Shown: positions 13,393-62,165 of the stretch, piece after piece | Layout: every line of letters starts with the position of its first letter | How positions within the stretch are numbered: the first letter of the stretch is position 1 | DNA from: Candidatus Enterousia sp. | Lineage (GTDB): Bacteria > Pseudomonadota > Alphaproteobacteria > Rs-D84 | NCBI GenBank assembly: GCA_045587125.1 | Contig: JAZNBN010000020.1 | Location: 1,796 to 65,795, forward strand | Length of the DNA: 64,000 bases | Direction: 5' to 3' | The notes under the pieces: model-generated | Databases searched by the model: none | What the model saw: the letters and a program-made list of their open reading frames with translations, nothing else | Told to the model about the DNA's origin: nothing | Translations under genes and position numbers: made by a program

Positions 13393-13421
13393 TTAAAAAT
13401 GCCCGAATGGGCATTTTTTTA
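13393..13421. terminator. bidirectional rho-independent terminator after the tRNA cluster
   Basis: Hairpin ATGCCCGaatGGGCAT followed by T-run. Confidence 0.6.
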
Positions 13422-14546: not shown

Positions 14547-14560
14547 GTTTAGTCCTTTTG

Positions 14561-14595
14561 TTGACAAATTATAATGTAAAACTATCGTTTGTCAA
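14561..14595 (-). promoter_or_regulatory. consensus sigma70-type promoter (TTGACA-N16-TATAAT, minus strand) bracketed by an 8-bp inverted repeat TTGACAAA...TTTGTCAA
   Basis: Minus-strand read TTGACAAACGATAGTTTTACATTATAATTTGTCAA lies just upstream of the start of the HTH-repeat gene. The inverted repeat spans -35 through +1. Confidence 0.5.
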
Positions 14596-15091: not shown

Positions 15092-15409
15092 TTATCGCAA
15101 TCCTTTTGATCGACAACATCCAGATGCGGCGGCACGCCAATCAGAATATTCTTTGTTTGGGTTACGCAGGTCACGCCATGGTTGCCAACCACTGCAACGT
15201 TTGTTTGAACCTGTGCCAGAACATTTTGCATAACGACGCAGTGAACATGTTTGATTTGAAACTTTGCCTGTATCGGTTGTGCATTTTACAACAACATTTT
15301 GATTTTTTGCATCATTTTTACCCAATTCTTTGGACGATAAAACCTGATACGCGTTTGCGGTGCAAATTGTGCTGGTAGCCATAATAATTGCAAGTAGTAT
15401 TTTTTTCAT
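15092..15409 (-). CDS. small secreted cysteine-rich protein (105 aa), unknown function
   Basis: Signal peptide MKKILLAIIMATSTICTANA and 8 Cys in about 85 mature residues. Confidence 0.5.
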   Translation of the reverse strand: MKKILLAIIMATSTICTANAYQVLSSKELGKNDAKNQNVVVKCTTDTGKVSNQTCSLRRYAKCSGTGSNKRCSGWQPWRDLRNPNKEYSDWRAAASGCCRSKGLR

Positions 15410-15475: not shown

Positions 15476-17140
15476 TTATTGGGGGTTGGTTGACCATGGT
15501 ATATCGTTCATAATCAGATAATATAATTCCGCATTATCTTGGCCTGGGTTACGTAATACGGGGCGTACAACAAATATATCGACATTACATGGTGTGTTTG
15601 TATTATCTTGGACTTCGGTTAAATCCTCATAAAACTTAGCAGCAAAATCCATGACTTGCAGATATGCGGCGTCGTCGTCGGTTGCATTGGTTGAATTGCC
15701 CATCCACATTAGCCACATACCATAATTTATGGTATCTTCTTGGCCAGCAATATCGTCTGCGGACAGCAATAACAAAGGCTTAAAATCGACACCACTGGTA
15801 AATTCGTCGGTACTGGTTTCTGTAAAGTCCCAAAACAGACCGCCAATTGTGCCCAATGCACCAAATGCCAGACTGCCTATGGTTTCTAATTTTGCCAATG
15901 CACCTGCATTTCTTAGTGTAGAATGAAACAGGTAATCACGAATTTGACCGGACAGTTTACTGCTGCGTCCCAGTTTGGCCGCTTTGTTTATTAATTTATT
16001 TCCTGAAAATGCTGCTTTGACACCCTTGCCTACACGTACAGTGCGTGCAAATATGTTTCCACGTTGTGCGATTTTGTGTAACGAGTTTACGCCACGCAGT
16101 TCATGTCTATATTTGTTTAATTCAGAATATGTTTTACTGGCTTCTTTATATTTTTTTACATCATCACTGTTTTCCAGTGTTTTTAATGTATCGTTTATTT
16201 TATTCAGTTCACGTTGTTTGTCTGCGATTTTTGCTGCGTCTTTTACTTTATCTAATGTTTTTATTTCATCGGCTAATTTAGCAGCTTGTCCGGATATCTT
16301 TATGTGATCACGGACAGCGTCAACGTTACGAAGTTGTTTTAATGTGGTTCGTAGACCTTTTAATGCACGTGCGGCACGTGGCGCCTTGGTGGCCCCCAAT
16401 ACAACTGTGCCAGTCCCAGCTGTTAATACAGTGATGGCGACATCCAGTGCTATTTCTGCATATCCAACCCATTCCAGGTTTTTATTGCCTGCAACGTAGT
16501 AATCGTTGGAATCATCTTTGATACTGACTGTTTGTATCATTGCACGATTTATTGCGTCTCCGTCACCTGTCCAGGCAGTTTCACTGGTGCAACTTAGACC
16601 ACGCGGATAAAAACTGTCGAAATTATCATTTATATATTTCATTGAAATTGTGTTGTTTTTATCAGGACCAACAAATTCATCCAGTGTGCCTGATTCAACA
16701 ACCATAATACCGTACCATGCAGGATCTGTATTTGTCCAAACAGTATCGCCATCTTCACCAATTTTTGGGTTGGGGTCACTGGACGGCAGACTTCGTTTTT
16801 GTCCCAATGTCAGCCGTTGTTTTAGAATTTTTGGTTGTGTTTCGTAATTTACAATTATTTCACGACCACCTGGGAAAGTGTATTTTATTGGTGCGAATTT
16901 AATTGTTTCTGTTTCCGGAACAGATGATATTTCTGGACAATTTAAAACCGATGATAAAACTTTGTGATTGTAAAAAGTTTTATATATCCATTCTTTGATT
17001 ACGTCTGGTTCGTCTTGTTCGGTAACTGTGTCGGCTGTTTGTGCCAAAGCGTTCGCAAAAATCTGTGAGGCACAAGGTGTGGCATTTGCGTTTGTAAATA
17101 TCATCAGAAAAAAAACAAAAAATATTAAATTTTTTTTCAT
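15476..17140 (-). CDS. secreted protein with central coiled-coil and glycine-zipper-like hydrophobic segments, unknown function
   Basis: Signal peptide MKKNLIFFVFFLMIFTNANA. Segments AITVLTAGTGTVVLGATKA and SLAFGALGTIGGLFW. Lys-rich coiled-coil. Confidence 0.6.
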   Translation of the reverse strand: MKKNLIFFVFFLMIFTNANATPCASQIFANALAQTADTVTEQDEPDVIKEWIYKTFYNHKVLSSVLNCPEISSVPETETIKFAPIKYTFPGGREIIVNYETQPKILKQRLTLGQKRSLPSSDPNPKIGEDGDTVWTNTDPAWYGIMVVESGTLDEFVGPDKNNTISMKYINDNFDSFYPRGLSCTSETAWTGDGDAINRAMIQTVSIKDDSNDYYVAGNKNLEWVGYAEIALDVAITVLTAGTGTVVLGATKAPRAARALKGLRTTLKQLRNVDAVRDHIKISGQAAKLADEIKTLDKVKDAAKIADKQRELNKINDTLKTLENSDDVKKYKEASKTYSELNKYRHELRGVNSLHKIAQRGNIFARTVRVGKGVKAAFSGNKLINKAAKLGRSSKLSGQIRDYLFHSTLRNAGALAKLETIGSLAFGALGTIGGLFWDFTETSTDEFTSGVDFKPLLLLSADDIAGQEDTINYGMWLMWMGNSTNATDDDAAYLQVMDFAAKFYEDLTEVQDNTNTPCNVDIFVVRPVLRNPGQDNAELYYLIMNDIPWSTNPQ

Positions 17141-18480
17141 TGTATTAAACTGTCGCATTGTTGTTGCAAAATAGTTATTTCATTTTGAATGCGTTGTATT
17201 AATGCAGGGTATGGGTCGTTTGGAACAGAACTGTCCCCGTTTATTAGACGCCAATTATAGCAAAAATTTTGTGTGTCTGGGATATATTCCACATATGCAT
17301 TTGCAGGTGGTTCACCGTTACAATATCTGGTGACGCATTCTGGCGCCCATGCATCATCTTTCCATAATCCATCCCACCATGATGCAGGTTTGTCCGAACC
17401 ACCCTGTAAACATTGACGAACCCCCGGACGTTTTACAGTCATTTTGCCATCTGATGATTCAACACCACAAAACATATATTCACCTATTTGTGCCTGGCGT
17501 TGACCCTTGTTAAAGGCGGTATTACAACATGTAAATAGACCAGTTTCTGGATCGTGCAAACAATCTGTTTCCGAGAATAATTGTGAACCTGCGATTACTG
17601 TACCAAGGACTGTGCCAACAATTGCACCAACACCATTACCAATTACAGGTACAGCGGTACCAATTGCCATACCTGTTGTTAAACCGCCAACTGCACCTGC
17701 AAAAAGATTGCCTACGCTGTGTTTGTCTTTGCCTGTGACGGTAGAGGCAACAGTCAAAACGCCCCCAACCCCTGCAACAGCTGTACCAACTTTTGCGGCT
17801 GTACTCATACCTTTCCAACCCTGGGGTGTAGTGTTTGCAGGTGCCTGATTAGTTGATTGGTTTGTGCCAGCACCTGTTTGAGTTGCAGCTTGATTCGTAC
17901 CTGCGCCCGTTTGAGTCGCTGCTTGATTTGTACCTGCACCCGTTTGAGTCGCTGCTTGATTCGTACCAGCACCTGTTTGAGTCGCTGCTTGATTCGTACC
18001 TGCGCCAGTATTTGTCCCATTTGGTGGTGTTGCTGATGACGGTGTTGTTCCACTTGGAAATGCTGTGCCGGATGTCGTAACATTAGGAGTTGTTGGTGTT
18101 GGCGCAGATGTTGTGGCAAATTGATTCGTACCTGCGCCAGTATTTGTACCATTTGGTGGTGTTGCTGATGACGTTGTTGTCCAACTTGGAAATGCTGTGC
18201 CGGATGTCGTAACATTAGGAGTTGTTGATGTTGGCGCAGATGTTGTGGCAAATGGTGTAATTGGAATTGGTGTAGAAGTTGGTGGCATATTTCTGATGTG
18301 GTCTGGCATTCCTGTGGTGCTAACGAATTGACCATTTACTGCGTTACGAAATCTGTTGTCTGGTGTTCTTATCAGTTGTACATCTGGATCATTCCATGCG
18401 GCACATAATGCGCTGTTTGTTGTCATCGCAACAAAACAAGAAAGCGCAATATTAAAAAGAAGATATTTTTTGTGTATCAT
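17137..18480 (-). CDS. secreted Thr/Pro-rich repeat protein with Gly-rich hydrophobic region and Cys-rich C-terminal domain
   Basis: Signal peptide. Tandem peptide repeats (QAATQTGAGTN x5 and a ~43-aa unit x2). GxxxG-rich segment AVGGLTTGMAIGTAVPVIGNGVGAIVGTVLG. C-terminal domain with about 10 Cys. Overlaps flanking genes by 4 nt. Confidence 0.6.
   Translation of the reverse strand: MIHKKYLLFNIALSCFVAMTTNSALCAAWNDPDVQLIRTPDNRFRNAVNGQFVSTTGMPDHIRNMPPTSTPIPITPFATTSAPTSTTPNVTTSGTAFPSWTTTSSATPPNGTNTGAGTNQFATTSAPTPTTPNVTTSGTAFPSGTTPSSATPPNGTNTGAGTNQAATQTGAGTNQAATQTGAGTNQAATQTGAGTNQAATQTGAGTNQSTNQAPANTTPQGWKGMSTAAKVGTAVAGVGGVLTVASTVTGKDKHSVGNLFAGAVGGLTTGMAIGTAVPVIGNGVGAIVGTVLGTVIAGSQLFSETDCLHDPETGLFTCCNTAFNKGQRQAQIGEYMFCGVESSDGKMTVKRPGVRQCLQGGSDKPASWWDGLWKDDAWAPECVTRYCNGEPPANAYVEYIPDTQNFCYNWRLINGDSSVPNDPYPALIQRIQNEITILQQQCDSLIQ
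17861..18250. repeat. nested in-frame tandem DNA repeats (about 33 bp x5 followed by about 130 bp x2) inside the Thr/Pro-rich gene
   Basis: Direct repeats visible in the sequence (e.g. cctgtttgagtcgctgcttgattcgtacctgcgcc recurring). The second block is duplicated nearly identically at about 17998 and 18128. Confidence 0.75.
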
Positions 18481-19367
18481 AAATATGTTCCCTTTAATTT
18501 GCATTTTGATAATTCAATATTTTGTTGCTGACATTGTTGCAGTGTTTTCAAATCTTCAACCAATATTTGATATTTTGCATTGGAATTTGTGCAATAAGCA
18601 TTTTTTTGTTGTTCAACTCGCTTGCGACGTGTAAGAAATTCTTCCTCTGATTCTATTTCAATTTCTGTGTATGCACGACTGTCTTTATATGGTTCATAGC
18701 CCTTGGTTTCGTTTGCGATGCGTTCCGCAAATGACAAATCTGCGTATGTGGCTGGAAAACTGGCACGTTGCAGGCCAACGTTGTTTGCACCATTTTGGTT
18801 TTGTAATGATTCCAGTTCGTTTTTGCGTTCCTGCATTTCTTTGGCCCATTCAGGAACATTTGGGGCAAATGGATTTGGAATGTTTATTCCCGAATCGTAT
18901 GCGTTCGGATTTGGTGCGGTTGCATTTGGAAAAGCAACATGCCCAGACGGACCAGATGTTGTATAGTTTGCCTTGTATTGTTCAAATGCACTGTCCAAAT
19001 ATCCAGAACATGACGATATATAATTGCCATCAGATATTCGTGACAGTTGTAATAACACAGCAGGTCTAATGTCGTTTAATGTGGTGCTGGCACAATTGTT
19101 TAACAGTGCACACTGGGAAATAATTAAATTATAAACGATTGTTTGACAATCTTCTGAATCAATCTTGGGACCAGTGGCGTATACAGGTTGTGGCATACGC
19201 ATGTTGTATGGCCCATTTGGATCGTATCCAGGTTGGGTCGAATATTTTTGTACGTTTTGAATAACGCCGTATTGTGAAAATGGTGATGGAGATGAGGCAC
19301 GTGACGAATATGTGCAAAAAATGCAACCTGTCAATAATGCTAAAATACTGGGGTTATTCACTCTCAT
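18477..19367 (-). CDS. lipoprotein, unknown function
   Basis: Signal peptide with lipobox LLTGC. Ser/Pro-rich linker. Acidic coiled C-terminus. Confidence 0.55.
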   Translation of the reverse strand: MRVNNPSILALLTGCIFCTYSSRASSPSPFSQYGVIQNVQKYSTQPGYDPNGPYNMRMPQPVYATGPKIDSEDCQTIVYNLIISQCALLNNCASTTLNDIRPAVLLQLSRISDGNYISSCSGYLDSAFEQYKANYTTSGPSGHVAFPNATAPNPNAYDSGINIPNPFAPNVPEWAKEMQERKNELESLQNQNGANNVGLQRASFPATYADLSFAERIANETKGYEPYKDSRAYTEIEIESEEEFLTRRKRVEQQKNAYCTNSNAKYQILVEDLKTLQQCQQQNIELSKCKLKGTYL

Positions 19368-19942: not shown

Positions 19943-20590
19943 ATGAGTAAAGGTTGGGATAACGCAACGCTTAAAAAACTGAAAGCATTAACGTGCAAGG
20001 GGTTATCTACTTCTGAAATTGGTAAGCGTTTGGGGATGTCTAAAAACGCCATTGTTGGCAAACTGAATCGTCTGGGTTGGAATGCCAAGGCTGGTGGTGC
20101 CGCGGCGGCTGAGGTTAAAGATGTTGAAACAAAAAAGACAGCCACAGCAAAAAATACAAAGACAACCAAAGTGGTCAAGGTTGCAAAGTCTGTTAAGAAA
20201 ACAGCAACGTCAAAGGTTGCGGCAACTAAAAAAACTGTTAAGGCACCTAAGGTCGCTGCGACAAAGAAGGTAACAGAAAAGGCTGTTAAAACAACCAAGG
20301 GTGCAACAAAGACAAAAAGTGTAAAAGTGGCGACACCCAAGGGTGCGGATAAAAAGTCTGCTAAGGGAAAAGATGTAAAATCCAGTGCTAAAAATTTGGC
20401 GGTTCATCAACGTATTATTCAACATTCTTTGGAAATGGCGAATTTAAAACCGAATCAGTGCCGTTGGCCAATTGGGGATCCGGATTCTGAACATTTTCAT
20501 TTTTGTGGTGAAACGGTATTTGTTGGTAAACCTTATTGCTATGAACATTGTAAACAGGCGTATCAGTTTACCCCGCCAAAAAAGAAATAA
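19943..20590 (+). CDS. gcrA: cell-cycle transcriptional regulator GcrA with a long Lys/Ala/Thr-rich linker
   Basis: N-terminal DNA-binding domain (W..A.L..L...GLS.SEIGKRLGMSKNAIVGKLNRLG) and C-terminal GcrA signature (CRWPIGDP...FCGE...GKPYC.EHC..AY). Confidence 0.8.
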   Translation: MSKGWDNATLKKLKALTCKGLSTSEIGKRLGMSKNAIVGKLNRLGWNAKAGGAAAAEVKDVETKKTATAKNTKTTKVVKVAKSVKKTATSKVAATKKTVKAPKVAATKKVTEKAVKTTKGATKTKSVKVATPKGADKKSAKGKDVKSSAKNLAVHQRIIQHSLEMANLKPNQCRWPIGDPDSEHFHFCGETVFVGKPYCYEHCKQAYQFTPPKKK

Positions 20591-22878: not shown

Positions 22879-25227
22879 ATGAGAGTGATATTAAGTTTTT
22901 TTGCTGTGTTGTTGTTCATGTCTTTTGATATGGGGGCGTATGCTGCCCTTAATGCATCGGGAAATAGCAGTTCACCTGCATGTGCGGGTAAAGATAAAGC
23001 GGTTACATTAACGGATCGTTGCCCCAGTGTTCCACAGTTGAAATTGCTTGGGAATCAATCTTTAAAAGATAACGAATTTTTATACGCTAGTTACAGTACA
23101 TACGAATCTTTGCAAAAAGAATATAATAAAAGACCTGCGGCGTGCAGAACATATTTTAGTACCAATCAAGCCAATGGTGTTTATGAGTGTGATAAAGATT
23201 ATTGTGGCAGATATACTGTATTGATAATGGATAAAAATCACGGTTTTAATGGAAAGACAGTGGCTGATAAACGTGCATATATATGTGATACTAATGTTGA
23301 TGATAGATGGATTCCATATTCACATAACATATCTGAATGCACAAAAGGTCAGATGGATACAAAGTCTTATACAAAAATCAAGGGACTGGACGGTTTACAA
23401 TACAGATATAAAAAAGATGCTACAAGAATTACTTCTATATGTCAGGTTCCTCAGGATAAATCAAATGTTCAACAAACAGGCGATAATACGGTATCTAAAA
23501 CCGGTACTCAGGGGGCGACACGTTCGGAAACAAAACCAGATGGTGAAACAACAGAAGATAAAACGCCCAAAAAAAATACGGTAGAGAAACCACAACCAGA
23601 ACAATCAACAAATAAAACACAACATGAAAATGTGGGTGATGAAAAAATTGGTCAGCCTTGTACGACAGAAAATGCAAAAAAGGCTGTTTGGCAAAAAATT
23701 GATAAAGAAATCAAATGTGTTGCCAAAGAATGTAATCAGGACAGATATTTGGTTGTGAATAGTAAAGGTGAATCTCAAGGGTACTGTATTGCGAATACTT
23801 GCAAGGCACCAAAAACATTAAATATTATTGACGGAACAAAAACTGATAAAAGGTGCGTTGACCCCGCTGCATCGGAAATTGCAGAAGAAACAATCGAAGA
23901 AGATGTTGAAGAAGAATTACCAACTGTGCCATTCAGACCAGATTTACAAATTAACCAGCCATGTGCACAAGGTTTTTTGACGATATTAAACGCAAAGACC
24001 GGTAAATATGCTAAGCATGCAGGTTCTGATGATATTTATTGTGATATAACAGAATGTAATGAAAATTTTGTGAAAGTATCACGAAATCAAGGTGAAACGT
24101 ATGATGATTATAATGGAGTGAATTTGTACGAAATATGTGAATGTCCTAGTGAAACTCATACTATAAATAATGAAGGTAAATGTGTTGCAAATACGAATGG
24201 TGTGCCTGCAACGGATAGAACACCTGCTGAAGCTAATGTTAGTATAACAGTACAAGGCACGATTAACGATAGCGCAGGTAATTGTCTTGCGAATGCAGAG
24301 ATTGTATTTCCAGATGGTGCATATATAAATCAAGAGGGTTGTAACTTTACTGTTGGATTACAAGAATCTGGCGAAATTACTTTTTCATTTGATGGTTATG
24401 AATCTGTATCCAAGAGTTATAGTGAAAGTGTATATAATGAAATAATTGTTTTGACAAAGTCTGCAACAGATGTTGCGGTTGATGAAGGTAACGAAGCAGT
24501 TGTGCCAGATGAAGGTTTAGAAGAACAGGATAAAGAACCAATTGATAAAGAAGACGATAAAATCCAAGAATTACGTGATAAAGCTGATGCGGCACATGAA
24601 CGCGAAAATTCAATGGCGAATAAAATGTTGGGTGCGGCCGGTATCGGTGCGACCGGTATTGGTGGAATGATGCTGATGCAGGGATTGTCTGAACAAAAGG
24701 CGGATAACAATGCCCAGGAACAAATGCGCGCATATTTGTCCACATTTATGTGCAGATTTGGTGATGGCCGTGCCACGGGCGGTGAATCTGATATTGAATT
24801 GCCGGGTGCAAACGCATTATTACCACTTTATGCCGAATATGTAACATTGGCAAATGAAACCAAGGCTATGAAGACAGAACTGGATTTAAAACCAGGTATA
24901 GAATCTGAAAGTATCTTGGATAACGCAACATCTGGTTTGTATGATGATGAAAATACTGGCAAAACATCTGGTGCATTTGCTTCATTGGCACGTGCATTAC
25001 AAAACCCAGATGGCGAAGATGCGAAAAAATGGGCCGAACAAACTGAAAAAGCATCTAAGAACATAAAAACAGGTGCGATTACTGCGGGTGCCGGTGCGGT
25101 TGGCGGATTGGTTGGTCATATTACTGAAAGTGCGGTTTATAAAAAGAAGGCTGAAAAAGGTAATGAAGATTCAGACGATGAATCTGAAGATAAAAAATAT
25201 AAACCTAAAAAACGTGGAAGAAGTTAA
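22879..25227 (+). CDS. secreted cysteine-rich protein (782 aa) with C-terminal Gly-zipper hydrophobic segment and Lys/Glu-rich tail
   Basis: Signal peptide MRVILSFFAVLLFMSFDMGAYA. About 50 Cys. Segment MLGAAGIGATGIGGMMLMQGL. No recognisable enzymatic motif. Confidence 0.55.
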   Translation: MRVILSFFAVLLFMSFDMGAYAALNASGNSSSPACAGKDKAVTLTDRCPSVPQLKLLGNQSLKDNEFLYASYSTYESLQKEYNKRPAACRTYFSTNQANGVYECDKDYCGRYTVLIMDKNHGFNGKTVADKRAYICDTNVDDRWIPYSHNISECTKGQMDTKSYTKIKGLDGLQYRYKKDATRITSICQVPQDKSNVQQTGDNTVSKTGTQGATRSETKPDGETTEDKTPKKNTVEKPQPEQSTNKTQHENVGDEKIGQPCTTENAKKAVWQKIDKEIKCVAKECNQDRYLVVNSKGESQGYCIANTCKAPKTLNIIDGTKTDKRCVDPAASEIAEETIEEDVEEELPTVPFRPDLQINQPCAQGFLTILNAKTGKYAKHAGSDDIYCDITECNENFVKVSRNQGETYDDYNGVNLYEICECPSETHTINNEGKCVANTNGVPATDRTPAEANVSITVQGTINDSAGNCLANAEIVFPDGAYINQEGCNFTVGLQESGEITFSFDGYESVSKSYSESVYNEIIVLTKSATDVAVDEGNEAVVPDEGLEEQDKEPIDKEDDKIQELRDKADAAHERENSMANKMLGAAGIGATGIGGMMLMQGLSEQKADNNAQEQMRAYLSTFMCRFGDGRATGGESDIELPGANALLPLYAEYVTLANETKAMKTELDLKPGIESESILDNATSGLYDDENTGKTSGAFASLARALQNPDGEDAKKWAEQTEKASKNIKTGAITAGAGAVGGLVGHITESAVYKKKAEKGNEDSDDESEDKKYKPKKRGRS

Positions 25228-42800: not shown

Positions 42801-43253
42801 AATGTGAACTCTTTTGGACGCCGTAGAACCAAGACGGGCAAGGAAATGTTGACTGTAAATGCATCAGATAGTTATGGAAATATTGATGCGGTCGCCTTTG
42901 GTGATGCTGCGATTGAATTTTCGCAGATTTTGGCAAATGAAACAGTGGTTTTAATATCGGGTAAGTCGTCAAATCGTGATGACAGGGTGTCGATTTTTAT
43001 TGATTCTATTACACCGTTGACCCAATGGGTGGCAAAAATTGCCAAGAAATTAACATTGGATATCCGGGATAAGTCTGTTTTGCAGGATGTAAAAAAGGCT
43101 TTGGTGTCATTGCCACCTGGATATACAACTGTTGAATTGGTGTTACATGGTGCTGAAAAGGTCGCAACGATTGCATTACCTGGGGGTGTTGAATTGGGGG
43201 CGACAACTGTGGCTGATTTGACGGCTTTGGGACTGCGTGCAGAGGTGGAATAA
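39846..43253 (+). CDS. dnaE: DNA polymerase III alpha subunit
   Basis: 1135 aa with PHP domain N-terminus, polymerase core motifs (GLLKFDFLGL), OB-fold C-terminus. Confidence 0.9.
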   Translation: MQQFIHLRTHSRFSVGASTLTIKKIPELCLAANMPACALTDTNLMSGCAEFSDVMPKNKLQPIIGIEISLNHHNADPKILRSESLSKIVLLAQNHSGYLHLCDLNRIMYMRTENHHLGPYISFSELEQHSDGLICLSGAHTGPIGMALLNNQEEQANIYAKKFLDIFGDRFYIEIQRHGLEEEIKTEPGFLKIARDLNIPIVATNDACFATDTDYEAADALGCVLGQTKVIDPERARKSSEQYFKSYEQMSEIFSDLPEAIENTVVISQRCGFMVNVHEKPLLPRFGDDLETECQMLRDNTMNGLKRRLEQHGITDTKPYYEQAEFELGVIIGMGFPGYFLIVADYIDWCRKNDVLTGPGRGSGAGSIVAWALGITNVDPLKYGLLFERFLNPDRISMPDFDVDFEPTGIERVLAYICDKYGHDSVCRIITFGSLQARGAIRDIGRVYGLPYSKSDRLSKLIPQDAKTLKDAVGMSTEIQDILNNDQDLNKVVTVAEELEGSLRNLGQHACGVVIGDRPTTKIAPVYRDPANQLPSCQYDGHYLESAGLIKFDFLGLETLVVLKYATRLIQQTRGINIDLDKIPTDDEKTMKLWQAGLTEGIFQFDAPFVQQTLRKMHPTSFLEISALNALNRPGPIAFIPQFIARMHGEEEIEYVHPKAEPILKETYGIIVYQEQVMQLTRALAGFTRGQSDNVRKAMGKKIIKMLDELEGKFYEGCEQEQTLDRATAKDLWEKFKEFAKYAFNKSHAIAYSIVANQCAYLKANYTPEFLAASMSSNLNDTDQLAIFVDDAKTNFGIQIVAPDINQSESLFTVRDGKIVYGLAALKGVGAVATDAIVAERNANGKFKNLTDFAKRCASIMNKRILEAFAKTGVLDSLEPNRAKIYLNADAILAYAAKSRDGAGMLSLFANTVEDDVDEDRLQKNLPDTTPWTFSQKLENELSALGLYISAHPLDQYKHLIKKHKLITSATLASVGDRKPVQVAVNVNSFGRRRTKTGKEMLTVNASDSYGNIDAVAFGDAAIEFSQILANETVVLISGKSSNRDDRVSIFIDSITPLTQWVAKIAKKLTLDIRDKSVLQDVKKALVSLPPGYTTVELVLHGAEKVATIALPGGVELGATTVADLTALGLRAEVE

Positions 43254-43254
43254 C

Positions 43255-44100
43255 ATGAAACATATACCTGTATTATTAGACAGTGTTTTGAATGCCTTAG
43301 ATGACATTTGTAATAAAACGGTTATAGATTGTACATTTGGTGCAGGTGGGTATTCGCGTGCCTTTTTAGAACGTGGTGCGAATGTTATTGCCTTTGACAG
43401 GGATCCCAGTGTCGCAGATGATGCGAACAAGTTAAAACAACAATATGGTGAAAAATTTAAGTTTATTCAAAGTGCTTTTTCAGAAATATCACAAATTGAT
43501 ACAACTGTTGATGCGGTTGTTTTTGATCTTGGGATTTCTTCTATGCAGATTGATATCCCAGAACGTGGTTTTTCATTCCGTTTTGATGCACCACTGGATA
43601 TGCGTATGGCCAGCGATGGTATGACGGCGGCGGAATATATTGCCCAGGTGGATGCGGGTGAATTAACCCGTGTGTTACGTGAATATGGTGATATGAAAAA
43701 TGCGGGTGGAATTGTACGTGCGATAAAGGCCGCCCTGCCCAAGACTACGTTTCAATTACGTGATTTGATACATAATCCGCATGATTACGCACCTGTATTT
43801 CAGGCGTTACGTATTGCGGTTAATGATGAAATGGGACAATTGGAACGTGCTTTGGCGGCGGTGCCTGGGTTGTTAAAGGTTGGTGGAATGTGTTTGTGTG
43901 TAACGTTTCATTCTTTGGAAGACCGGATTGTTAAGAATACTTTTCGTGATTGGACAACTGTGCCAGGGGATCCGCGTATACCAATTGTTGCAGATGCCCC
44001 GTTCAAGTTGGTGCGTGTCGCACAACCGTCTGCGGAAGAAATTGCTGAAAATCCCCGTGCTCGGTCGGCACATATGCGTGGTGTTATAAAATCATATTGA
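43255..44100 (+). CDS. rsmH: 16S rRNA (cytosine1402-N4)-methyltransferase RsmH (MraW)
   Basis: Motifs HIPVLL, DCTFGAGGYS, FDRD, GISSMQID, RGFSFRFDAPLDMRM, FHSLEDRIVK, NPRARSA. The longer ORF from 43237 overlaps the dnaE end by 17 nt. Confidence 0.85.
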   Translation: MKHIPVLLDSVLNALDDICNKTVIDCTFGAGGYSRAFLERGANVIAFDRDPSVADDANKLKQQYGEKFKFIQSAFSEISQIDTTVDAVVFDLGISSMQIDIPERGFSFRFDAPLDMRMASDGMTAAEYIAQVDAGELTRVLREYGDMKNAGGIVRAIKAALPKTTFQLRDLIHNPHDYAPVFQALRIAVNDEMGQLERALAAVPGLLKVGGMCLCVTFHSLEDRIVKNTFRDWTTVPGDPRIPIVADAPFKLVRVAQPSAEEIAENPRARSAHMRGVIKSY

Positions 44101-44144: not shown

Positions 44145-44585
44145 GTGTTTATGTTTTTTAAAAGAAAAAATAAGTTAAAACATGCGGTTATAGATGCAGA
44201 TAATGCGAAAAAAGTCAATCCATTGGATTTGTCGGCAGACCAAGATTTGACAATTGCTATTATGAATTTAATTAAATTAGAAAAATTATTAGATGGTGTT
44301 GATACGTCTGGCGGGTACGATATGTGTGGTGCAATTCGTGATATGCGGCATCGTTTGATGGGGCGTGTTGTATCCGATACAGACGGTGATTTATGGAATA
44401 TGTCGTTGTATTTACTGGGGTTGGCAACTGATTTTATGGAACGCGGATTTATGACAACTGGTGCGTCGGCGTACGAAATGTTTGATAAATCGTACGAGGT
44501 TTATTCTTTGTTTTGGGGACTGAATATGGGGCTGATAACGGTTTCAGATGTGGCCCAGGATATTGAAAAACAAAAAAACATATAA
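44145..44585 (+). CDS. hypothetical protein (146 aa)
   Basis: ORF with plausible spacing to neighbours; no motif recognised. Confidence 0.4.
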   Translation: MFMFFKRKNKLKHAVIDADNAKKVNPLDLSADQDLTIAIMNLIKLEKLLDGVDTSGGYDMCGAIRDMRHRLMGRVVSDTDGDLWNMSLYLLGLATDFMERGFMTTGASAYEMFDKSYEVYSLFWGLNMGLITVSDVAQDIEKQKNI

Positions 44586-44652
44586 CGTGTAAAATTTGCT
44601 ATTGCGTTGCATGGGTAAAAAATGATAAAATGCAAAAAAGAGAGAAAGAAAA

Positions 44653-47091
44653 GTGAAAGGTCTTTTTAAACATTTTGGCAAGGTTTCTGCGATACTGACA
44701 ATGTGTGTTGGTGTTGGCAATTTGTATGCGGCCCAGGCACCAAATCCGCGTGGTGCATCGCATTCTGATGTTCGTTCCGATGTACGCAGTGGTGTACGTG
44801 GTGATGGTAGTTCTGCAAATGTTGTTTCCCGTGGTGCAACGAATCGTAGTGTGGTAAGTAATGGGCGTGGTACGGCGGCACGTACGGCGGTGGCCCCTGC
44901 CCGTGCTACGACGGCGCGCACTGCCACAAATACCAAGGTTGTTGCAATTCCGAAACGCACAAATGCGACCAATGTTCGCAGTGCTGTTCCTGCGACGACT
45001 GCACGCAGTGCGGTTGCGGGGGTAAAAACTGGACGTAATTCTGGAAATATCAAAATAACCAAGGCTGGGTTGGGACGTGCGGCACGTGCAACGGCTGTGT
45101 TTTCTGATATTTCAAAAATTGGTGGTGGTTATGGTCAATGTCGTGATTCGTATGCTACATGTATGGACCAGTTTTGTGCAAACGCAAATGATACATACCG
45201 TCGTTGTTTTTGTAGTGGGCGTTTTACAGAATTTCGTGACACAGAATTGGCGTTGGGCGAAGCCAAGGTTTTATTACAGAAATTTGAAGATAATAATTTA
45301 AATGCAGTTGATAAAACTGCGGCTGAGGTTAATGCAATGTACACCGCCACGATTGGCGAGGCTGCAATTAAAAATGACGTCAGTGGTGCCCAGTCTATAT
45401 TAAATGAAATTGGTGATTTGTTGTCTGGTAAAAAGAAGGCGGGGCAGCAACAGGAAAGCCAAACAATGGATTTAGGGTCTTTGGATTTTACTGTTAATAT
45501 TGATGATATTTGGGGGAGTTCTAATTCCATGTTTGATTCTGGTGGGCGTAGCGGTCCAAATATGGCAGAATTAGAAGGTAAATCATTATATAACGAAGCC
45601 AGCAAGCAATGCTTGGAATTGACATCGGATGCATGTACCAGTAGTGCTGTGTTAAACATGGCGACCAGTGCATATGACATTATGATTACCCAGGATTGTA
45701 ATTTGTACGAAAAAAAGATTGATTCCCAACGTGAAGCGGTTATGAAAACAGTGCGCGAGGCTGAAAAGATTCTGCGTGAAGCACGTCTGGAAGAATATCG
45801 TTCCCATAATTCTGCGGACGTAAACGAATGTATTACAAAGGTAAAAGCTGCTATATTACAGGATACAGCCTGTGGTGAAGATTATAAACGTTGTTTAGAT
45901 TATTCTGGTGTATATGTTAATCAGACAACGGGCGAACCAATTTATTCACCACGTTTGTTTGAAATGAATAAATTAATAGAACTGGAAGGTGCAACAGGTA
46001 ACCTGGATGTTTTGGGACAAAACAAAGCGTTTAATGATTTCTTGGATTCTAAGCGTGTGTTTGCAGAGACAGCATTAGATTCATGCCGTGGTATTGCGGA
46101 TACAGCATGGACAGAATTTAAGCGTACTGCCCTGATTGAAATTGCCCAGGCCCAAGATGAAAAAATAGAAGAAGTCAAAAATTCATGCGTTGAAACAATG
46201 GCAGAATGTTATGATGCACAGTCTGGTGCATTGAAATCATTTGATAATACTAAATCACAATACACGGGTGCGTTATCCGTTGCAGCGGCTAAGAATATGT
46301 GCCAGGACAAAGTGACGGCATGTGCGGCATTGTATGGAAATAATACAGCTTGTAAGATTGATGGTAATGGCAAGATTACAAATCCAAAGGAATGTGGGGT
46401 TGGAGAATTGTTGACCTTTGTGGATACTGTTGATACGATTAAAATGAATGAAGGCTGTGCTGAGGCATTAACAAACTATGTAACCAAAGATTTGTGTGTC
46501 CCATTGGCTAGCGAGGCAAATCGTGCATATCCGTGGGGATGTCGCAATTTAAGTCAGGAAGATTTGCGGTCGTCTATTATGGCACGTGCCAAAGAATATT
46601 GTGTGAATGTGCCAGATACTGGTTGTGAAGAGGAGATTAATTCCACAACATTTGATTCAAGTTCTTCGGATTGCGTAACAGTTAATAATTTGATTGAAAA
46701 TGTTAAATCTGAAATGTCATATATGTTTAGTGATGAATGTACAAATTTGGGCGGTATTTGGATTGATAATGAAGATGGCGCTTTCGGCGCAGCTGGAAAT
46801 TATGTGTCGACGGTTAATATTGGCGGTACGGGGCTGACAGAGTTTTATCTGGCGATGAATGCGGGTACGATGCAAGAAAGTGAGAAGTCGATTGGTATAT
46901 ACGGAAATTGTTATCAAAATTCAGTGAAAACACAGTGTGAATTATATGGAACAGATTCGGGTGCAACATATAATGAAACAACCGGACAATGTGATTTTGA
47001 TGATACGTGGTATGAAGCGCAATGTGCATTATTGGGTGGGTATTTTGAAGGGAATACATGTTATTATGATAAGGAATCACAACAAAAATAG
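44653..47091 (+). CDS. secreted cysteine-rich protein, paralogue B of the ~810-aa family (CMDQFC...YRRC core)
   Basis: Signal peptide MKGLFKHFGKVSAILTMCVGVGNLYAAQA, then a basic Arg/Ser/Thr-rich low-complexity region, then a Cys-rich domain co-linear with the 10529..12973 product. Confidence 0.7.
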   Translation: MKGLFKHFGKVSAILTMCVGVGNLYAAQAPNPRGASHSDVRSDVRSGVRGDGSSANVVSRGATNRSVVSNGRGTAARTAVAPARATTARTATNTKVVAIPKRTNATNVRSAVPATTARSAVAGVKTGRNSGNIKITKAGLGRAARATAVFSDISKIGGGYGQCRDSYATCMDQFCANANDTYRRCFCSGRFTEFRDTELALGEAKVLLQKFEDNNLNAVDKTAAEVNAMYTATIGEAAIKNDVSGAQSILNEIGDLLSGKKKAGQQQESQTMDLGSLDFTVNIDDIWGSSNSMFDSGGRSGPNMAELEGKSLYNEASKQCLELTSDACTSSAVLNMATSAYDIMITQDCNLYEKKIDSQREAVMKTVREAEKILREARLEEYRSHNSADVNECITKVKAAILQDTACGEDYKRCLDYSGVYVNQTTGEPIYSPRLFEMNKLIELEGATGNLDVLGQNKAFNDFLDSKRVFAETALDSCRGIADTAWTEFKRTALIEIAQAQDEKIEEVKNSCVETMAECYDAQSGALKSFDNTKSQYTGALSVAAAKNMCQDKVTACAALYGNNTACKIDGNGKITNPKECGVGELLTFVDTVDTIKMNEGCAEALTNYVTKDLCVPLASEANRAYPWGCRNLSQEDLRSSIMARAKEYCVNVPDTGCEEEINSTTFDSSSSDCVTVNNLIENVKSEMSYMFSDECTNLGGIWIDNEDGAFGAAGNYVSTVNIGGTGLTEFYLAMNAGTMQESEKSIGIYGNCYQNSVKTQCELYGTDSGATYNETTGQCDFDDTWYEAQCALLGGYFEGNTCYYDKESQQK

Positions 47092-47118
47092 AGAAAGCTC
47101 TTCTGAAAGGTGGACAGA

Positions 47119-48541
47119 TATGAAAAGAATGATGTTGTTTTTGATGATGTTTGTGTATATAACGCCATTGTTTGCACAAAGTAAGGGTGATGGTGCGTTG
47201 TATTACAATGATTGGGTTGTTAGTGACTCTATTCCTGATGATGCGTGTGATGTAAAGTCAAAAGATATGGGGTTGACAAAGCTCGCCGTTGAATGTAATG
47301 CAACTAGAATGACGGTGGCTACTGTTGTAAATGATAATTATATAGGTTATAAGGGGCAAGAGTATGTTGCACGTGAAATTAATCGATATGGTGCCAAGTT
47401 TTGCAAAACGGTTATAGGTGGTTATCGTAAAAATTGTCATTTTATGTCATATACCAGATATTTTGAGCCAGAGGTTCAGGATTGTTTTTGGTTGTGTAAG
47501 GAAGGGTATTATGGTGAATCATGCATGTCAACCGCATTGACCAGTGTGACCCCCCAGATACCGATGGAGCAATTTTTAATTAAAAAGCCGAAAGACGGTG
47601 TTGGTGCGTTGGCACCTTTTGGTACATCTGGGGATAATATAGAGGAACAAATCCCTATGTTTAGAGCGAATGAAGGGATAGATTGTTGGGATTGGAAAAA
47701 TCGTGCAGGTAGTTCATGTGACTATACAGATCATTTTGAAGATCTATATTCCGATGATCCAGAAGAACACGATATGATTTTGGCTGTGCAAAGTATAGGA
47801 AGTACGGATTCAAAATTCCAAATAAAGGTTCAACCATTGCTTTTACGTGCAGGCGCATCACAATATTGCTCTGGCAATGAAGCGGCATGGAATGCATGGC
47901 CGATGATGAAATTTGTAGGAAAACCAATATCTGTTTGCCCGTCTGATTATAAACAGGAAAAAAACAGTGATGGTACCATTAATTGTATAGATCCAGAAGC
48001 GCTGTCAAGACAAGAAAAGGCAAGTGTAGAAGCCTTAAAGGCTGATAAGCTGTCGCATTTATGTTCGTCTGATGGTTATCAATCTTCGTTATTCAAGGAT
48101 GAAATACATAATTTGGTGGTTGTTGATAAAGATACCAAGCAAATCAAGAAAGAGGGAGAGCAGCCAACGTTAGATGACGTTTATGATTGGTATGATAAGA
48201 ATGCGTGTGCTATATACAAGTGTAAATCGGAAGGTTTGGCATTTAAATCGGATTGGAAAACATCTGGCGATATGGGGTGTTATGATTGTACGGGGGGTAC
48301 TGGACGTTTTGGTATAGATAAACTGGGGGTGTGTATAAAATGTGATGATGGTCAGATTTTCATTGATGGCGAGTGTAAAGTAGCCAGCACGTTGTCAAAA
48401 ACTGATATGTTATATGGGATGGGTAAAACTTCTTCGACTAGCTTAGCTGATATGTGTTGGACCGAGACTAACCCTACATTATATAAATGTTGTGTTTCGA
48501 ATAACCAGATACCTGGTGCTGCTGCGTGTAACAACAAATAA
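47119..48541 (+). CDS. secreted cysteine-rich protein (about 474 aa), unknown function
   Basis: Signal peptide MKRMMLFLMMFVYITPLFAQS and about 36 Cys. Start 28 nt after the paralogue B stop. The longer ORF from 46937 overlaps the upstream gene. Confidence 0.55.
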
Positions 48542-48543
48542 AT

Positions 48544-48572
48544 AAAAAAATCCCCGAAATGGGGATTTTTTA
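48544..48572. terminator. bidirectional rho-independent terminator
   Basis: Hairpin ATCCCCgaaatGGGGAT flanked by A-run and T-run. Confidence 0.6.
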
Positions 48573-48603
48573 TAGCAAAACAAAAAAGTTTATTGATAAT
48601 TTA

Positions 48604-49023
48604 TTAGTCTTGACCGTTTAATGCCTTTAACATTTTCATAACCGCTTCGCGTTGGCTGTCAGTGGCCAATTTCCAATACAGGTTCACCAATTGTAATGAT
48701 TCGTTCTTGGATAACGGATCGTCTGGTTTTTGGTCACCAACGTTAACCTTGGGTAGACGGCCATTACGCGGTTCGCGTTCAATATGCCCGGGCAATCCAG
48801 AAAAGAAAAATGATACAGGGGTTTGTAAGGCCGCACTTAATTCAAATAAACGTGATGCAGATATGCGGTTGCCTGCACATTCGTATTTTTGAATCTGTTG
48901 AAATGTTACACCGCATATTTGTGCCAAATCTTTCTGAGACATGCCCAACATTACACGGCGCAGTTGCATGCGACGACCAATGTGTTCATCAATGTGTGAT
49001 GGTGTGTATGGTTTTCCACTCAT
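48604..49023 (-). CDS. XRE-family helix-turn-helix transcriptional regulator
   Basis: HTH_3-like segment (LGMSQKDLAQICGVTFQQIQKYECAGNRISASRLFELSAAL). Confidence 0.7.
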   Translation of the reverse strand: MSGKPYTPSHIDEHIGRRMQLRRVMLGMSQKDLAQICGVTFQQIQKYECAGNRISASRLFELSAALQTPVSFFFSGLPGHIEREPRNGRLPKVNVGDQKPDDPLSKNESLQLVNLYWKLATDSQREAVMKMLKALNGQD

Positions 49024-49157
49024 TTTGTCAGCCCCCCTTGGGTTTAAAATAAGATATTGTTCATATTTTTATGTATAATTTATACAATTTTTCTTTTGTT
49101 TTTGCAATCAAAAAACACTTGTGATACTATGTGTCCGTAAAGTAAAGGATTGTTGTT

Positions 49158-60772: not shown

Positions 60773-60800
60773 AAAATGTCCCAAATGGGACATTTTTTTA
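60771..60800. terminator. bidirectional rho-independent terminator
   Basis: Hairpin ATGTCCCaaaTGGGACAT flanked by A-run and T-run. Confidence 0.6.
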
Positions 60801-62165
60801 TTCAACCAATTTCCAACCCGTAAATGTATAACCTGGTTTAACTGGGTCAGCTGGGATTGCAATACCTTGATCATAAAAACACATGCCTTGGAGACCCATT
60901 TCACCGTTGTCAGGATTCCAATTAATATTTATCTTGTTGTTTTTACAATAGGTTATTTCGCCGTATGCTTCTGCGATTGAACTACTTGATGTCCAGAACG
61001 GAGTAAAACCAACGTCGTCAACAAAATCGAATTCTTCGGCAGACATTGGAGATTTGATCCATATATTATTAAATGGTATAGACTTATAACTGGCTATAAG
61101 CAGTAAAGTCCAATTATTTAACAATTCTGGATTATTCATAATTTTTGCGCTAGATTCTGTACTTACCATATTCAACACAAATTCAATTTGTTCTTGTTCT
61201 GTCAAATCATTTGGTATATTTATACTACCATTAGATATACCGTTTAGTATTTCTGTGTCGGCACTTGGTATCATTAAAGCAACCTGTCTTATCCACAGAT
61301 TATTTCCAGATTCTTCGTGCACAAAATTTTGGTTATAAGATATGCATTGTTTATGTTTGTCACAGTTTGTCATCGGCAAATCTGTACCATCCTGTTCGTT
61401 TTTAATAAGTTCATATAAAAACGCTTTCATGTCCGTTCTAAAAAACAAAACTTGTCCTGGTTTTAAAACTTGGCAAATGGATGAGTGTTCAGTCCATGGA
61501 TAGGAATTTCCTTGTATTCCGCGACCGTCCCAAGAACATGCAAACATTCCGACCAAATCTTCCTCTAAAACATCTGGTGTTTCGGGGTCATCTGGTTTAA
61601 ATATGTCTCTATTGGCGATTTCTTCGGCGGATATAGTTATTTTGGTATAACCGGCTTCGCATTCAAAATCTATGCTACAAAACTGTGGTATAGTATCACA
61701 TGTATTTTGACCATAAAACTGTTTACCATTACTGGTTGTTGTGCCATACGTACAATTTTGCGAATTTTCTGGGCATGCGTTTTGTATGCATGCTAATTCA
61801 CAGCCCATGTAACATTCGGATTCGGCGGTGGCGGCGGTGTCTGATGTATAATCGGCGGGGCATGCGTTTTTACTGTTATTTGCCTCGACTGTGAACACGC
61901 CGCCGGGACAATACGACCCGGTGGGGCATTCGGTGCAGTTCAGTGTCGTTTCATCCAGGTATTGCCCCGCCACGCATTCGTAACTGTTCAGCGACCATGT
62001 CGCAATTGTATTTGCCGTCGCATTATTGTCCGACACGCCCAGGACGTCAACCGTACATGTACCCGCCCCGCCCGTAATTTTTTTGTCTGTGGTGGCCGTA
62101 TCGTCCGCGAATGCGCTGTACACGGTCATAATAAATGCACTGGATAAAAACAAAAACTTTTTCAT
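60798..62165 (-). CDS. secreted cysteine-rich protein with ephrin-receptor-like (GCC2/GCC3-type) Cys repeats and a C-terminal Listeria-Bacteroides-type repeat
   Basis: Signal peptide MKKFLFLSSAFIMTVYSAFA. Repeats YECVAGQYLDETTLNCTECPTGSYCPGG...NACPADYTSD. C-terminal motif PGYTFTGWKL. Confidence 0.6.
   Translation of the reverse strand: MKKFLFLSSAFIMTVYSAFADDTATTDKKITGGAGTCTVDVLGVSDNNATANTIATWSLNSYECVAGQYLDETTLNCTECPTGSYCPGGVFTVEANNSKNACPADYTSDTAATAESECYMGCELACIQNACPENSQNCTYGTTTSNGKQFYGQNTCDTIPQFCSIDFECEAGYTKITISAEEIANRDIFKPDDPETPDVLEEDLVGMFACSWDGRGIQGNSYPWTEHSSICQVLKPGQVLFFRTDMKAFLYELIKNEQDGTDLPMTNCDKHKQCISYNQNFVHEESGNNLWIRQVALMIPSADTEILNGISNGSINIPNDLTEQEQIEFVLNMVSTESSAKIMNNPELLNNWTLLLIASYKSIPFNNIWIKSPMSAEEFDFVDDVGFTPFWTSSSSIAEAYGEITYCKNNKININWNPDNGEMGLQGMCFYDQGIAIPADPVKPGYTFTGWKLVE

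Follow-up and report, generated by a model that had tools for sequence, protein, structure and literature searches.

A hypervariable, exchangeable cassette spanning two adjacent genes for predicted exported cysteine-rich proteins in Candidatus Enterousia

We analysed a 64,000-nt stretch (hereafter, the window) of a Candidatus Enterousia sp. genome (order Rs-D84, Alphaproteobacteria; assembly GCA_045587125.1, contig JAZNBN010000020.1, positions 1,796–65,795), with attention to two adjacent genes for cysteine (Cys)-rich proteins, which we refer to as gene B and its partner, and to a paralogue of B located elsewhere in the window, gene A. The 3′ part of B and the entire partner gene constitute an allelic cassette that has been moved by recombination between strains and even between species-level lineages. 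Gene B itself is made up of a slow-evolving 5′ two-fifths, encoding a spacer and a helical core common to A, and a fast-evolving 3′ part. Judged from their sequences, both genes are predicted to encode exported Cys-rich proteins with Sec-type signal peptides, and both belong to orphan families that extend across the order. The explanation that we favour, at a probability of roughly 0.45, is that the C-terminal head of B and the partner form a surface-exposed recognition or antigen complex, carried on a disulfide-stapled stalk supplied by B. An earlier note on this DNA had proposed a two-gene module of uncharacterised Cys-rich exported proteins at this position; its observation is partly confirmed, being largely correct in substance but wrong on the Cys count, an upstream terminator and the orientation of a neighbouring XRE-family gene, and its interpretation is partly supported. 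The note covered neither the small open reading frame (ORF) upstream of B nor the hypervariability of the B 3′ end and the partner.

An exchangeable cassette across two genes

Within-species alleles were drawn from ENA and NCBI contigs, and a scan of JGI metagenomes for additional same-species alleles returned only relatives of ≤56 % identity. Alleles were set against the surrounding backbone in a matrix of nine genomes (the window, L001, L002, L088, L089, L155, L156, L157 and L158). The features at the centre of the analysis are:

44653..47091, + strand: gene B, an 812-aa predicted exported Cys-rich protein (GTG start from the ORF list; the N-terminus agrees with the family consensus)
47120..48541, + strand: the partner gene, a 473-aa predicted exported protein with 24 Cys (ATG at 47120, from the ORF list)
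46220..48588, + strand: the cassette, comprising the 3′ part of B, the whole partner gene and the terminator (defined by nucleotide identity to L001/L002, sharing with L089 and substitution rates)
48545..48571, both strands: bidirectional intrinsic terminator, AAAAAATCCCCGAAATGGGGATTTTTT, with an 11-bp stem, T-runs on both sides and −14.8 kcal/mol in context

The backbone of L001 and L002 (dnaE, rsmH, the XRE-family gene, gpmI and downstream genes) is 93–100 % identical to that of the window at the nucleotide level. Within the locus, identity to these two genomes is 70–85 % from ~45,800 and 42–60 % from ~46,220, against 95–100 % in the flanks; at ~48,588, immediately beyond the terminator, it jumps back to 100 %. 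The left edge of the cassette is graded between 45,800 and 46,220 and differs between comparisons; the right edge is sharp (~48,575–48,588). The same gradient is seen in the B proteins of same-species relatives (P0008–P0013), which are 92–100 % identical to the window protein over residues 1–400, 50–80 % over residues 400–650 and 10–25 % over residues 650–750, the most variable stretch being ~residues 651–750 (46,603–46,902). The ratio of non-synonymous to synonymous substitution rates (dN/dS) follows this division, with values of 0.30–0.56 for the partner and the B 3′ end vs 0.05–0.12 for the B 5′ end, rsmH, gpmI and XRE, a 3–6-fold difference; for the B core, which is 92–100 % identical in amino acid sequence among same-species relatives, the ratio is 0.05–0.09.

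Comparison of the nine genomes revealed that partner alleles are incongruent with the backbone. The backbone clades are window/L001/L002, L155/L156/L158 and L088/L089, while the partner alleles group the window with L089 (89 % identity), L001 with L156 (94 %) and L155 with L158 (75 %), those of L002, L157 and L088 each being distinct. The metagenome contig L089 is the clearest instance: its small ORF and B 5′ region are 48–74 % identical to those of the window and its backbone 67 %, whereas identity reaches 90–100 % from ~46,735 through the end of B, and the shared stretch runs on to 48,541 (46,735..48,541 at 90–95 %), with the partner gene 89 % identical overall (78–95 % in 300-nt windows). 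Likewise, synonymous divergence (dS) between the partner genes of L001 and L156 is 0.15, vs a backbone dS of 0.31–0.56. Since the G+C content of the cassette, both overall (GC) and at third codon positions (GC3), equals the genome values, the exchange takes place among Enterousia genomes. tblastn found no silent donor copies of the B C-terminus or of the partner within the 64-kb window. When other species are compared with the window, the partner has a median identity of 25 % and B one of 50 %, against 66 % for RsmH and 73.5 % for GpmI. The locus therefore combines hypervariability, recombinational exchange and a dN/dS above that of its flanks, as do members of the surface-variable antigen/adhesin class.

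Neighbourhoods were counted over 80 loci, namely the best-matching 80 of at least 575 species-representative genomes that encode a B relative, using hidden Markov models (HMMs) built in this analysis to score the partner and the small ORF next to B (the latter model from 5 orthologues). The partner lies immediately after B in 64 of these 80 species loci, in agreement with the two-gene module of the earlier note, and the contig is truncated in 5 of the 16 exceptions. In L067, L073, L074 and L087, XRE and gpmI come right after B, the partner being absent, and in L062 and L071 a shorter Cys-rich secreted ORF occupies the partner position. In L157, B is followed by a tandem pair of partner-like genes, of 528 and 516 aa (L157:6583-9723).

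The two halves of the cassette also diverge in step. Over 65 genomes, partner distances correlate with those of the last 190 residues of B (r = 0.75; partial r 0.67 when controlling for the B N-domain, permutation p = 0.001), while the reverse partial correlation is 0.12. A conserved N-terminal part of B, a variable C-terminal part, a co-varying gene immediately downstream and a cassette of the two that crosses lineages (L089) are together reminiscent of polymorphic toxin–immunity systems. On that reading, B would be a secreted effector with a variable C-terminal toxin directed at competitors, and the partner would be its cognate periplasmic immunity protein, the two being exchanged in the manner of contact-dependent inhibition (CDI) and Rhs loci. 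The downstream gene does co-vary with the C-terminal domain in the window/L089 and L001/L156 co-transfers, although the two are decoupled in L001/L002 and L088/L089, and the tandem partner-like genes of L157 resemble extra immunity genes. We nevertheless consider this alternative highly improbable. No trafficking, pre-toxin or toxin domain was found in the Pfam, NCBIfam and PADLOC scans, and the left boundary of the cassette is graded, with no sharp demarcation motif. In polymorphic toxins, the C-terminal domains of different alleles are unrelated folds, whereas all C-terminal alleles of B are homologous and keep the same invariant Cys (C696, C753, C762, C780, C791 and C803). The partner (~380–550 aa) is larger than the variable domain of B, is predicted to be exported and disulfide-rich, and belongs to one homologous family, and several lineages carry an intact B without it, which would be suicidal if B were a toxin.

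Two orphan families of predicted exported proteins

Residues 1–26 of B form a signal-peptide-like N-terminus (MKGLFKHFGKVSAILTMCVGVGNLYA, followed by AQ). Residues 27–157 are a disordered spacer and residues 158–812 a long-helix, disulfide-rich body with a small alpha/beta C-terminal domain at its end. In the AlphaFold2 (AF2) model of B, the spacer is disordered, helices reach a length of 55 residues, and the hypervariable blocks map to the small alpha/beta domain at the C-terminus. The parts of B, its paralogue and the translation signal of the partner are:

44731..45123, + strand: low-complexity spacer of B (residues 27–157), with 7 R[STGA]A motifs and a predicted local distance difference test (pLDDT) score <50
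45124..45800, + strand: conserved core of B (~residues 158–383), including TCMDQFC...YRRCFCS, the region aligned with A
10529..12973, − strand: paralogue A, 814 aa from an MKKILVY start, 30 % identical to B
47106..47114, + strand: Shine–Dalgarno-like sequence AAAGGTGGA before the partner start (read from the sequence; 5–6 nt ahead of the ATG at 47120)

The spacers of B and A had been characterised as Arg/Ser/Thr-rich and Asn/Gln/Lys-rich, respectively. This description is roughly right, with the qualification that Ala leads in B (Ala 20 %, Arg 12 %, Val 11 %, Thr 11 %, Ser 11 %) and Thr in A (Thr 15 %, Ser 11 %, Asn 10 %, Arg 10 %, Gln 10 %, Lys 9 %). Across the B family, the median spacer length is 132 aa; Ala, Ser, Arg, Val and Thr are abundant, and the mature N-terminus with which the spacer opens, (A)QAPNPR(S/G)A, is conserved. 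R[STGA]A motifs occur 760 times in total, against 202 ± 13 in composition-preserving shuffles (3.75-fold), with a median of 7 per protein, and the Arg positions are near-invariant in the family consensus. By way of a guess, the spacer might be anchored electrostatically to the envelope.

BLASTP supports the earlier description of B as an 812-aa paralogue of A that shares the CMDQFC...YRRC core, returning 30 % identity across 504 aa (E 6e-63, TCMDQFC...YRRC.C included). In L005, L009, L010 and L011, an orthologue of A, 58–61 % identical to A and ~30 % to B, lies immediately past the partner in convergent orientation (all on the minus strand; L005:12019-14694, L009:8086-10374, L010:8013-10295 and L011:8045-10384), such that B, the partner and A form a three-gene cluster in these species. 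As these orthologues from other species are closer to A than to B, A and B are ancient, separately conserved paralogues. In the window, A is situated 32 kb away from the B/partner pair, is convergent with lpxB and has a 382-aa repeat protein directly upstream on the same strand (13419..14567, −; approximately four internal repeats, with weak DUF5997 and DnaD_N-like, i.e. helix-turn-helix (HTH)-like, matches). The earlier note had asked whether A might have a Cys-rich partner of its own; no partner-like neighbour was detected for A within the 64-kb window, and it is B's partner that the A orthologue follows in the four species above.

The 28-nt gap between B, whose TAG stop codon occupies 47089–47091, and the signal-peptide protein that follows was correctly reported in the earlier note, as was the absence of any relationship between the two proteins (best E 2.8). 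The length and Cys content of the partner had been overestimated, at 474 aa and approximately 36 Cys; we count 473 aa and 24 Cys. Its N-terminus is signal-peptide-like (MKRMMLFLMMFVYITPLFA, followed by QS), and the motifs CYDCTGGTG, CIKCDDGQ, GEC, CWTE and YKCC listed in the note are all present. The conserved motifs of the family are GAKFCKT, CFWLCxxGYYGxxC, QEHDxVLA, CxxCxG...CxxCxxGxxF...C and CW...P..YK.C. Of these, CFWLCxxGYYGxxC and CxxCxxGxxF...C resemble EGF- or ephrin-receptor-like repeats, but by eye only, no EGF, Ephrin_rec_like or related Pfam profile matching the partner at E ≤ 1. The AF2 model suggests a mixed, beta-rich fold. Partner proteins range from ~380 to 550 aa and constitute a single homologous family; a word-indexed profile search recovered 14–15 relatives, while exhaustive HMMER searching recovered 364 representatives at 50 % clustering, 317 of them with E ≤ 1e-10. 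The downstream ORF is clearly a genuine translated gene, to judge from its Shine–Dalgarno site, 15–16 Cys conserved in 66 genomes, dN/dS <1 and the 364 family representatives; the earlier note had named an untranslated downstream ORF as grounds for refutation.

Cys make up 3.8 % of B (31 Cys), 5.1 % of the partner and 3.6 % of A, against a mean of 1.34 % for the remaining 48 ORFs of the window. Of the 31 Cys of B, 28 are 100 % conserved across 66 genomes; in the partner, 15–16 of the 24 are conserved and the remainder are allele-specific. An even number of Cys is present in the mature form of 64 of 65 B proteins and of 60 of 66 partner proteins, and partner residues C43 and C189 are both present in 42 genomes and both absent in 20, with only 4 discordant (62/66 concordant). 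Obligatory intramolecular disulfides formed in an oxidising extracytoplasmic compartment would give rise to such conservation and to such a pattern of even counts. The window allele of B carries an extra pair, C658 (46624..46626) and C674 (46672..46674), inside the most variable segment and present in ~2 % of the 66 genomes, and the window partner carries six allele-specific Cys, again an even number, suggesting that alleles gain and lose whole disulfides. B has no conserved lipobox, C18 being found in 14 % of genomes only.

As the earlier note had anticipated, neither protein matches a known family. Searches with B, A, the partner and the small ORF returned best E values of 0.12–0.22 in Pfam-A, far below the gathering cutoffs, no matches in NCBIfam or PADLOC, and only hits to unknown families (E 0.006–0.04) in PHROGs; a profile search of PDB sequences with two alignments gave 0 matches at E ≤ 1. 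The literature on Enterousia and Rs-D84 consists of genome-level descriptions, with nothing on the B or partner proteins. Homologues of B fall into at least 1222 clusters, all unnamed or ‘hypothetical’ and all from uncultured Alphaproteobacteria. The best 80 genomes with a B relative are Candidatus Enterousia or unclassified alphaproteobacterial metagenome-assembled genomes from the gut of ruminants, chicken, humans and other hosts, and the B/A family, with its two ancient paralogues, is near-universal in the order Rs-D84.

Locus organisation and envelope context

Two further genes flank the pair:

44151..44585, + strand: small conserved ORF between rsmH and B, 144 aa, 1 Cys, no signal peptide; part of the backbone of the locus
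48604..49023, − strand: XRE-family HTH gene (HTH_3, E 2.2e-10), a backbone neighbour

The HMM places the small ORF directly 5′ of B in 65 of 80 species loci, and the ORF is 92–95 % identical in same-species genomes. Every long contig examined has the gene order SecA–DnaE–RsmH–small ORF–B–partner, usually followed by XRE on the minus strand and gpmI. The gene rsmH (mraW) is usually the first in the division/cell-wall (dcw) cluster; here, rsmH (43237..44100) comes after dnaE, and the place of ftsL/ftsI behind it is taken by the small ORF, B and the partner, an arrangement kept across the order. In L006, the gene after the partner is a giant one (>3500 aa) that contains Flg_new repeats, in place of XRE and gpmI (L006:12741-18619).

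The pair had been described as bounded by terminators. This holds for the 3′ side, where the terminator at 48545..48571 is common to the partner (+) and the convergent XRE gene (−), but not for the 5′ side, where the interval 44586..44652 upstream of B contains no intrinsic terminator, only a weak hairpin (−7.6 kcal/mol) with no T-run. Transcription would probably enter B from rsmH or the small ORF upstream, continue into the partner and end at the terminator (48545–48571).

The earlier note further took the locus to be expressed divergently from the XRE gene and the latter to be its dedicated regulator, which amounts to an autonomous, terminator-bounded two-gene operon under XRE control. The XRE product is a bona fide HTH_3 protein and its gene neighbours the pair in most loci examined. 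The divergent orientation, however, was a strand error: XRE lies tail-to-tail with the partner and is divergent from gpmI (49158), such that the proposed regulatory region, 49024..49157, is the XRE/gpmI intergenic region and not upstream of the pair. In addition to the lack of a terminator upstream of B, XRE is 97–98 % identical in nucleotide (99–100 % in amino acid) sequence in genomes with different, unrelated cassettes, stays beside gpmI in the partner-less L067, L073, L074 and L087, and is absent from the locus in L006. Being convergent, near-identical while the pair is replaced, retained without the partner and missing in L006, XRE bears no mark of a dedicated regulator and appears to be a backbone gene independent of the cassette. 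We therefore give this model very little credence.

Other predicted exported proteins without family matches are encoded in the window. One of 782 aa (22879..25227, +), with a signal peptide and 23 Cys, is Cys-rich in its N-terminal half and acidic and of low complexity in the middle, and has a hydrophobic Gly/Ala-rich segment close to the C-terminus; it has no Pfam match and is unrelated to A. A 455-aa signal-peptide protein with 20 Cys (60798..62165, −), a further orphan Cys-rich exported protein in this small genome, has sub-threshold matches to Flg_new (Listeria–Bacteroides repeat), DUF7631 and Ephrin_rec_like. Exported proteins of 105 aa with 7 Cys (15092..15409, −) and of 455 aa with 11 Cys (17137..18504, −) have no family match. 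We considered these four as possible paralogues of B or the partner, but BLASTP shows no relation. Orphan disulfide-rich secreted proteins seem to take an unusually large share of the 64-kb window. A GcrA cell-cycle regulator homologue (19943..20590, +; Pfam E 1e-27) has also been kept in this reduced genome.

Enterousia genomes are ~0.75–1.0 Mb in size and lack a tricarboxylic acid (TCA) cycle, respiration, flagella and standard transporters, while retaining MreB, RodA and MrdA, and it has been proposed that these bacteria rely on cell contact with a partner organism (PMC12306168). The presence in the window of genes for BamD, MurJ, an RlpA-like protein, an M23 peptidase, LpxA/B and TolQ points to a normal diderm envelope with peptidoglycan.

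Against this background, B, A and the partner could be structural proteins that are not exposed, forming a periplasmic or inner-leaflet disulfide scaffold that stiffens the envelope of a reduced-genome cell, analogous to the chlamydial Cys-rich complex, with their divergence reflecting weak constraint. Consistent with such a role are the Cys-rich composition and predicted export of the proteins, the host dependence and reduced genome of the bacterium, the near-universal occurrence across the order of a family with two ancient paralogues, the lack of a recognisable outer-membrane export signal and a dN/dS of <1. Weak constraint alone, however, does not account for the same cassettes on divergent backbones and different cassettes on near-identical backbones, and it leaves unexplained why partner dS falls below backbone dS; the sharp right edge at the terminator also speaks against it. 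The peptidoglycan-containing diderm envelope genes of the window, together with MreB, RodA and MrdA in Rs-D84, leave no obvious need for a peptidoglycan substitute, such that a chlamydia-like substitute as a necessity is ruled out, and Pfam reveals no homology to OmcA/OmcB. We regard the structural alternative as improbable.

A putative surface complex and its relation to known systems

In the explanation that we favour, B and the partner would form a fully disulfide-bonded two-protein assembly in the Candidatus Enterousia cell envelope. The conserved N-terminal half of B (the spacer of Arg-rich R-S/T-A repeats and the long-helix bundle) would anchor or assemble the protein in the envelope, and the variable C-terminal alpha/beta head would bind the partner. 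The head–partner complex would be exposed on the cell surface, where it may recognise a variable ligand, either the surface of the cell on which Enterousia lives or the host mucosa; alternatively, the complex may itself be targeted by phage or antibody. Such exposure would lead to diversifying or balancing selection and to the exchange of alleles, and the dense disulfides would confer protease resistance in the gut.

Several points weigh against this. Neither B nor the partner has a recognisable outer-membrane anchor, beta-barrel, lipobox or known secretion-system signal. Gene-wide dN/dS is <1, and relaxed constraint combined with recombination could yield the same values. The coupling between the two halves is incomplete, as L001/L002 and L088/L089 share the B 3′ end (85–88 %) while their partners are ~60 % (59–60 %) identical, and physical linkage of adjacent DNA in recombination may by itself account for the correlation of the B C-terminus with the partner. 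B can evidently function without the partner, given that L067, L073, L074 and L087 have retained B and lack the partner. The AF2 models are of moderate quality (predicted template modelling (pTM) scores 0.55 and 0.60), that of the partner having been built on 15 sequences.

A more far-reaching version, which we put forward as speculative and rather unlikely, is that the B head and the partner represent an undescribed, disulfide-rich, exchangeable specificity cassette that sets which cell (bacterial, protist or host epithelial) is attached to or recognised as kin. It would be a new fold class of cell–cell recognition receptor whose alleles cross species, with A and B supplying the common conserved stalk or anchor.

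Enterousia is a widespread uncultured gut lineage of livestock, birds, humans and probably termites. The outlay of ~3.9 kb on two orphan disulfide-rich exported proteins in a genome of <1 Mb suggests that they are likely central to its biology. The pair is conserved over hundreds of species, yet no other sequence in the neighbourhood evolves as fast or recombines as much as its distal parts. The locus is a candidate surface structure for interaction with a partner or host, or a candidate target of phage or IgA, and could serve as a marker for strain typing. The two families (>1200 and >360 clusters) have no Pfam entry, annotation or PDB sequence-profile match.

Four groups of known systems resemble the locus in part. 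TraA/TraB of Myxococcus xanthus is a polymorphic cell-surface receptor for outer-membrane exchange, with which the locus shares its two genes, a Cys-rich exported protein, a strain-variable polymorphic domain (which in TraA sets recognition specificity) and a cell-contact biology that fits the proposed partner-dependent lifestyle of Enterousia. In TraA, however, the variable domain is PA14-like and situated towards the N-terminus, the protein bears a MYXO-CTERM sorting tag, and TraB contains an OmpA domain. B and the partner have none of these features, there is no sequence or profile similarity, and the variable part here is the B C-terminus plus the entire second gene. The chlamydial omcA–omcB pair is similar in consisting of adjacent genes for Cys-rich exported envelope proteins in a dependent diderm with a reduced genome, disulfides being likely central in both. 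OmcB is beta-rich, has Chlam_OMP6/DUF11 domains and is conserved rather than encoded on a hypervariable cassette, and OmcA is a small Cys-rich lipoprotein; in contrast, we found no Chlam_OMP6/DUF11 match here, B consists mainly of long helices, and peptidoglycan and normal envelope genes are retained.

CdiA-CT/CdiI and Rhs-CT/RhsI likewise combine a conserved N-terminal with a variable C-terminal region, a co-varying downstream gene and cassette exchange between lineages. They differ in that B has no delivery or toxin domains, that its variable domains are homologous and built on one Cys framework, and that the downstream protein is large, predicted to be exported, disulfide-rich and dispensable in some lineages. 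In view of the absence of the defining domains that we looked for, membership in any of the groups, TraA/TraB, OmcA/OmcB, the toxin cassettes or the variable surface antigens (Msp2 and VSPs), is not supported.

The last of these, namely Anaplasma Msp2/P44, the central domains of flagellins and the variant surface proteins (VSPs) of Giardia, have in common with the locus a hypervariable segment that lies between conserved flanks and is replaced by recombination, and the Cys-rich scaffold may, as in Giardia VSPs, give resistance to gut proteases. They share no homology with B or the partner; silent donor cassettes are absent from the 64-kb window, the variation seen here is between genomes, and the variable unit covers two genes. 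A hypervariable, recombining locus for exported proteins is known behaviour; what appears to be new, on the sequence comparisons made here, are both protein families, their predicted folds and a variable unit made up of the 3′ part of one gene together with the whole gene downstream.

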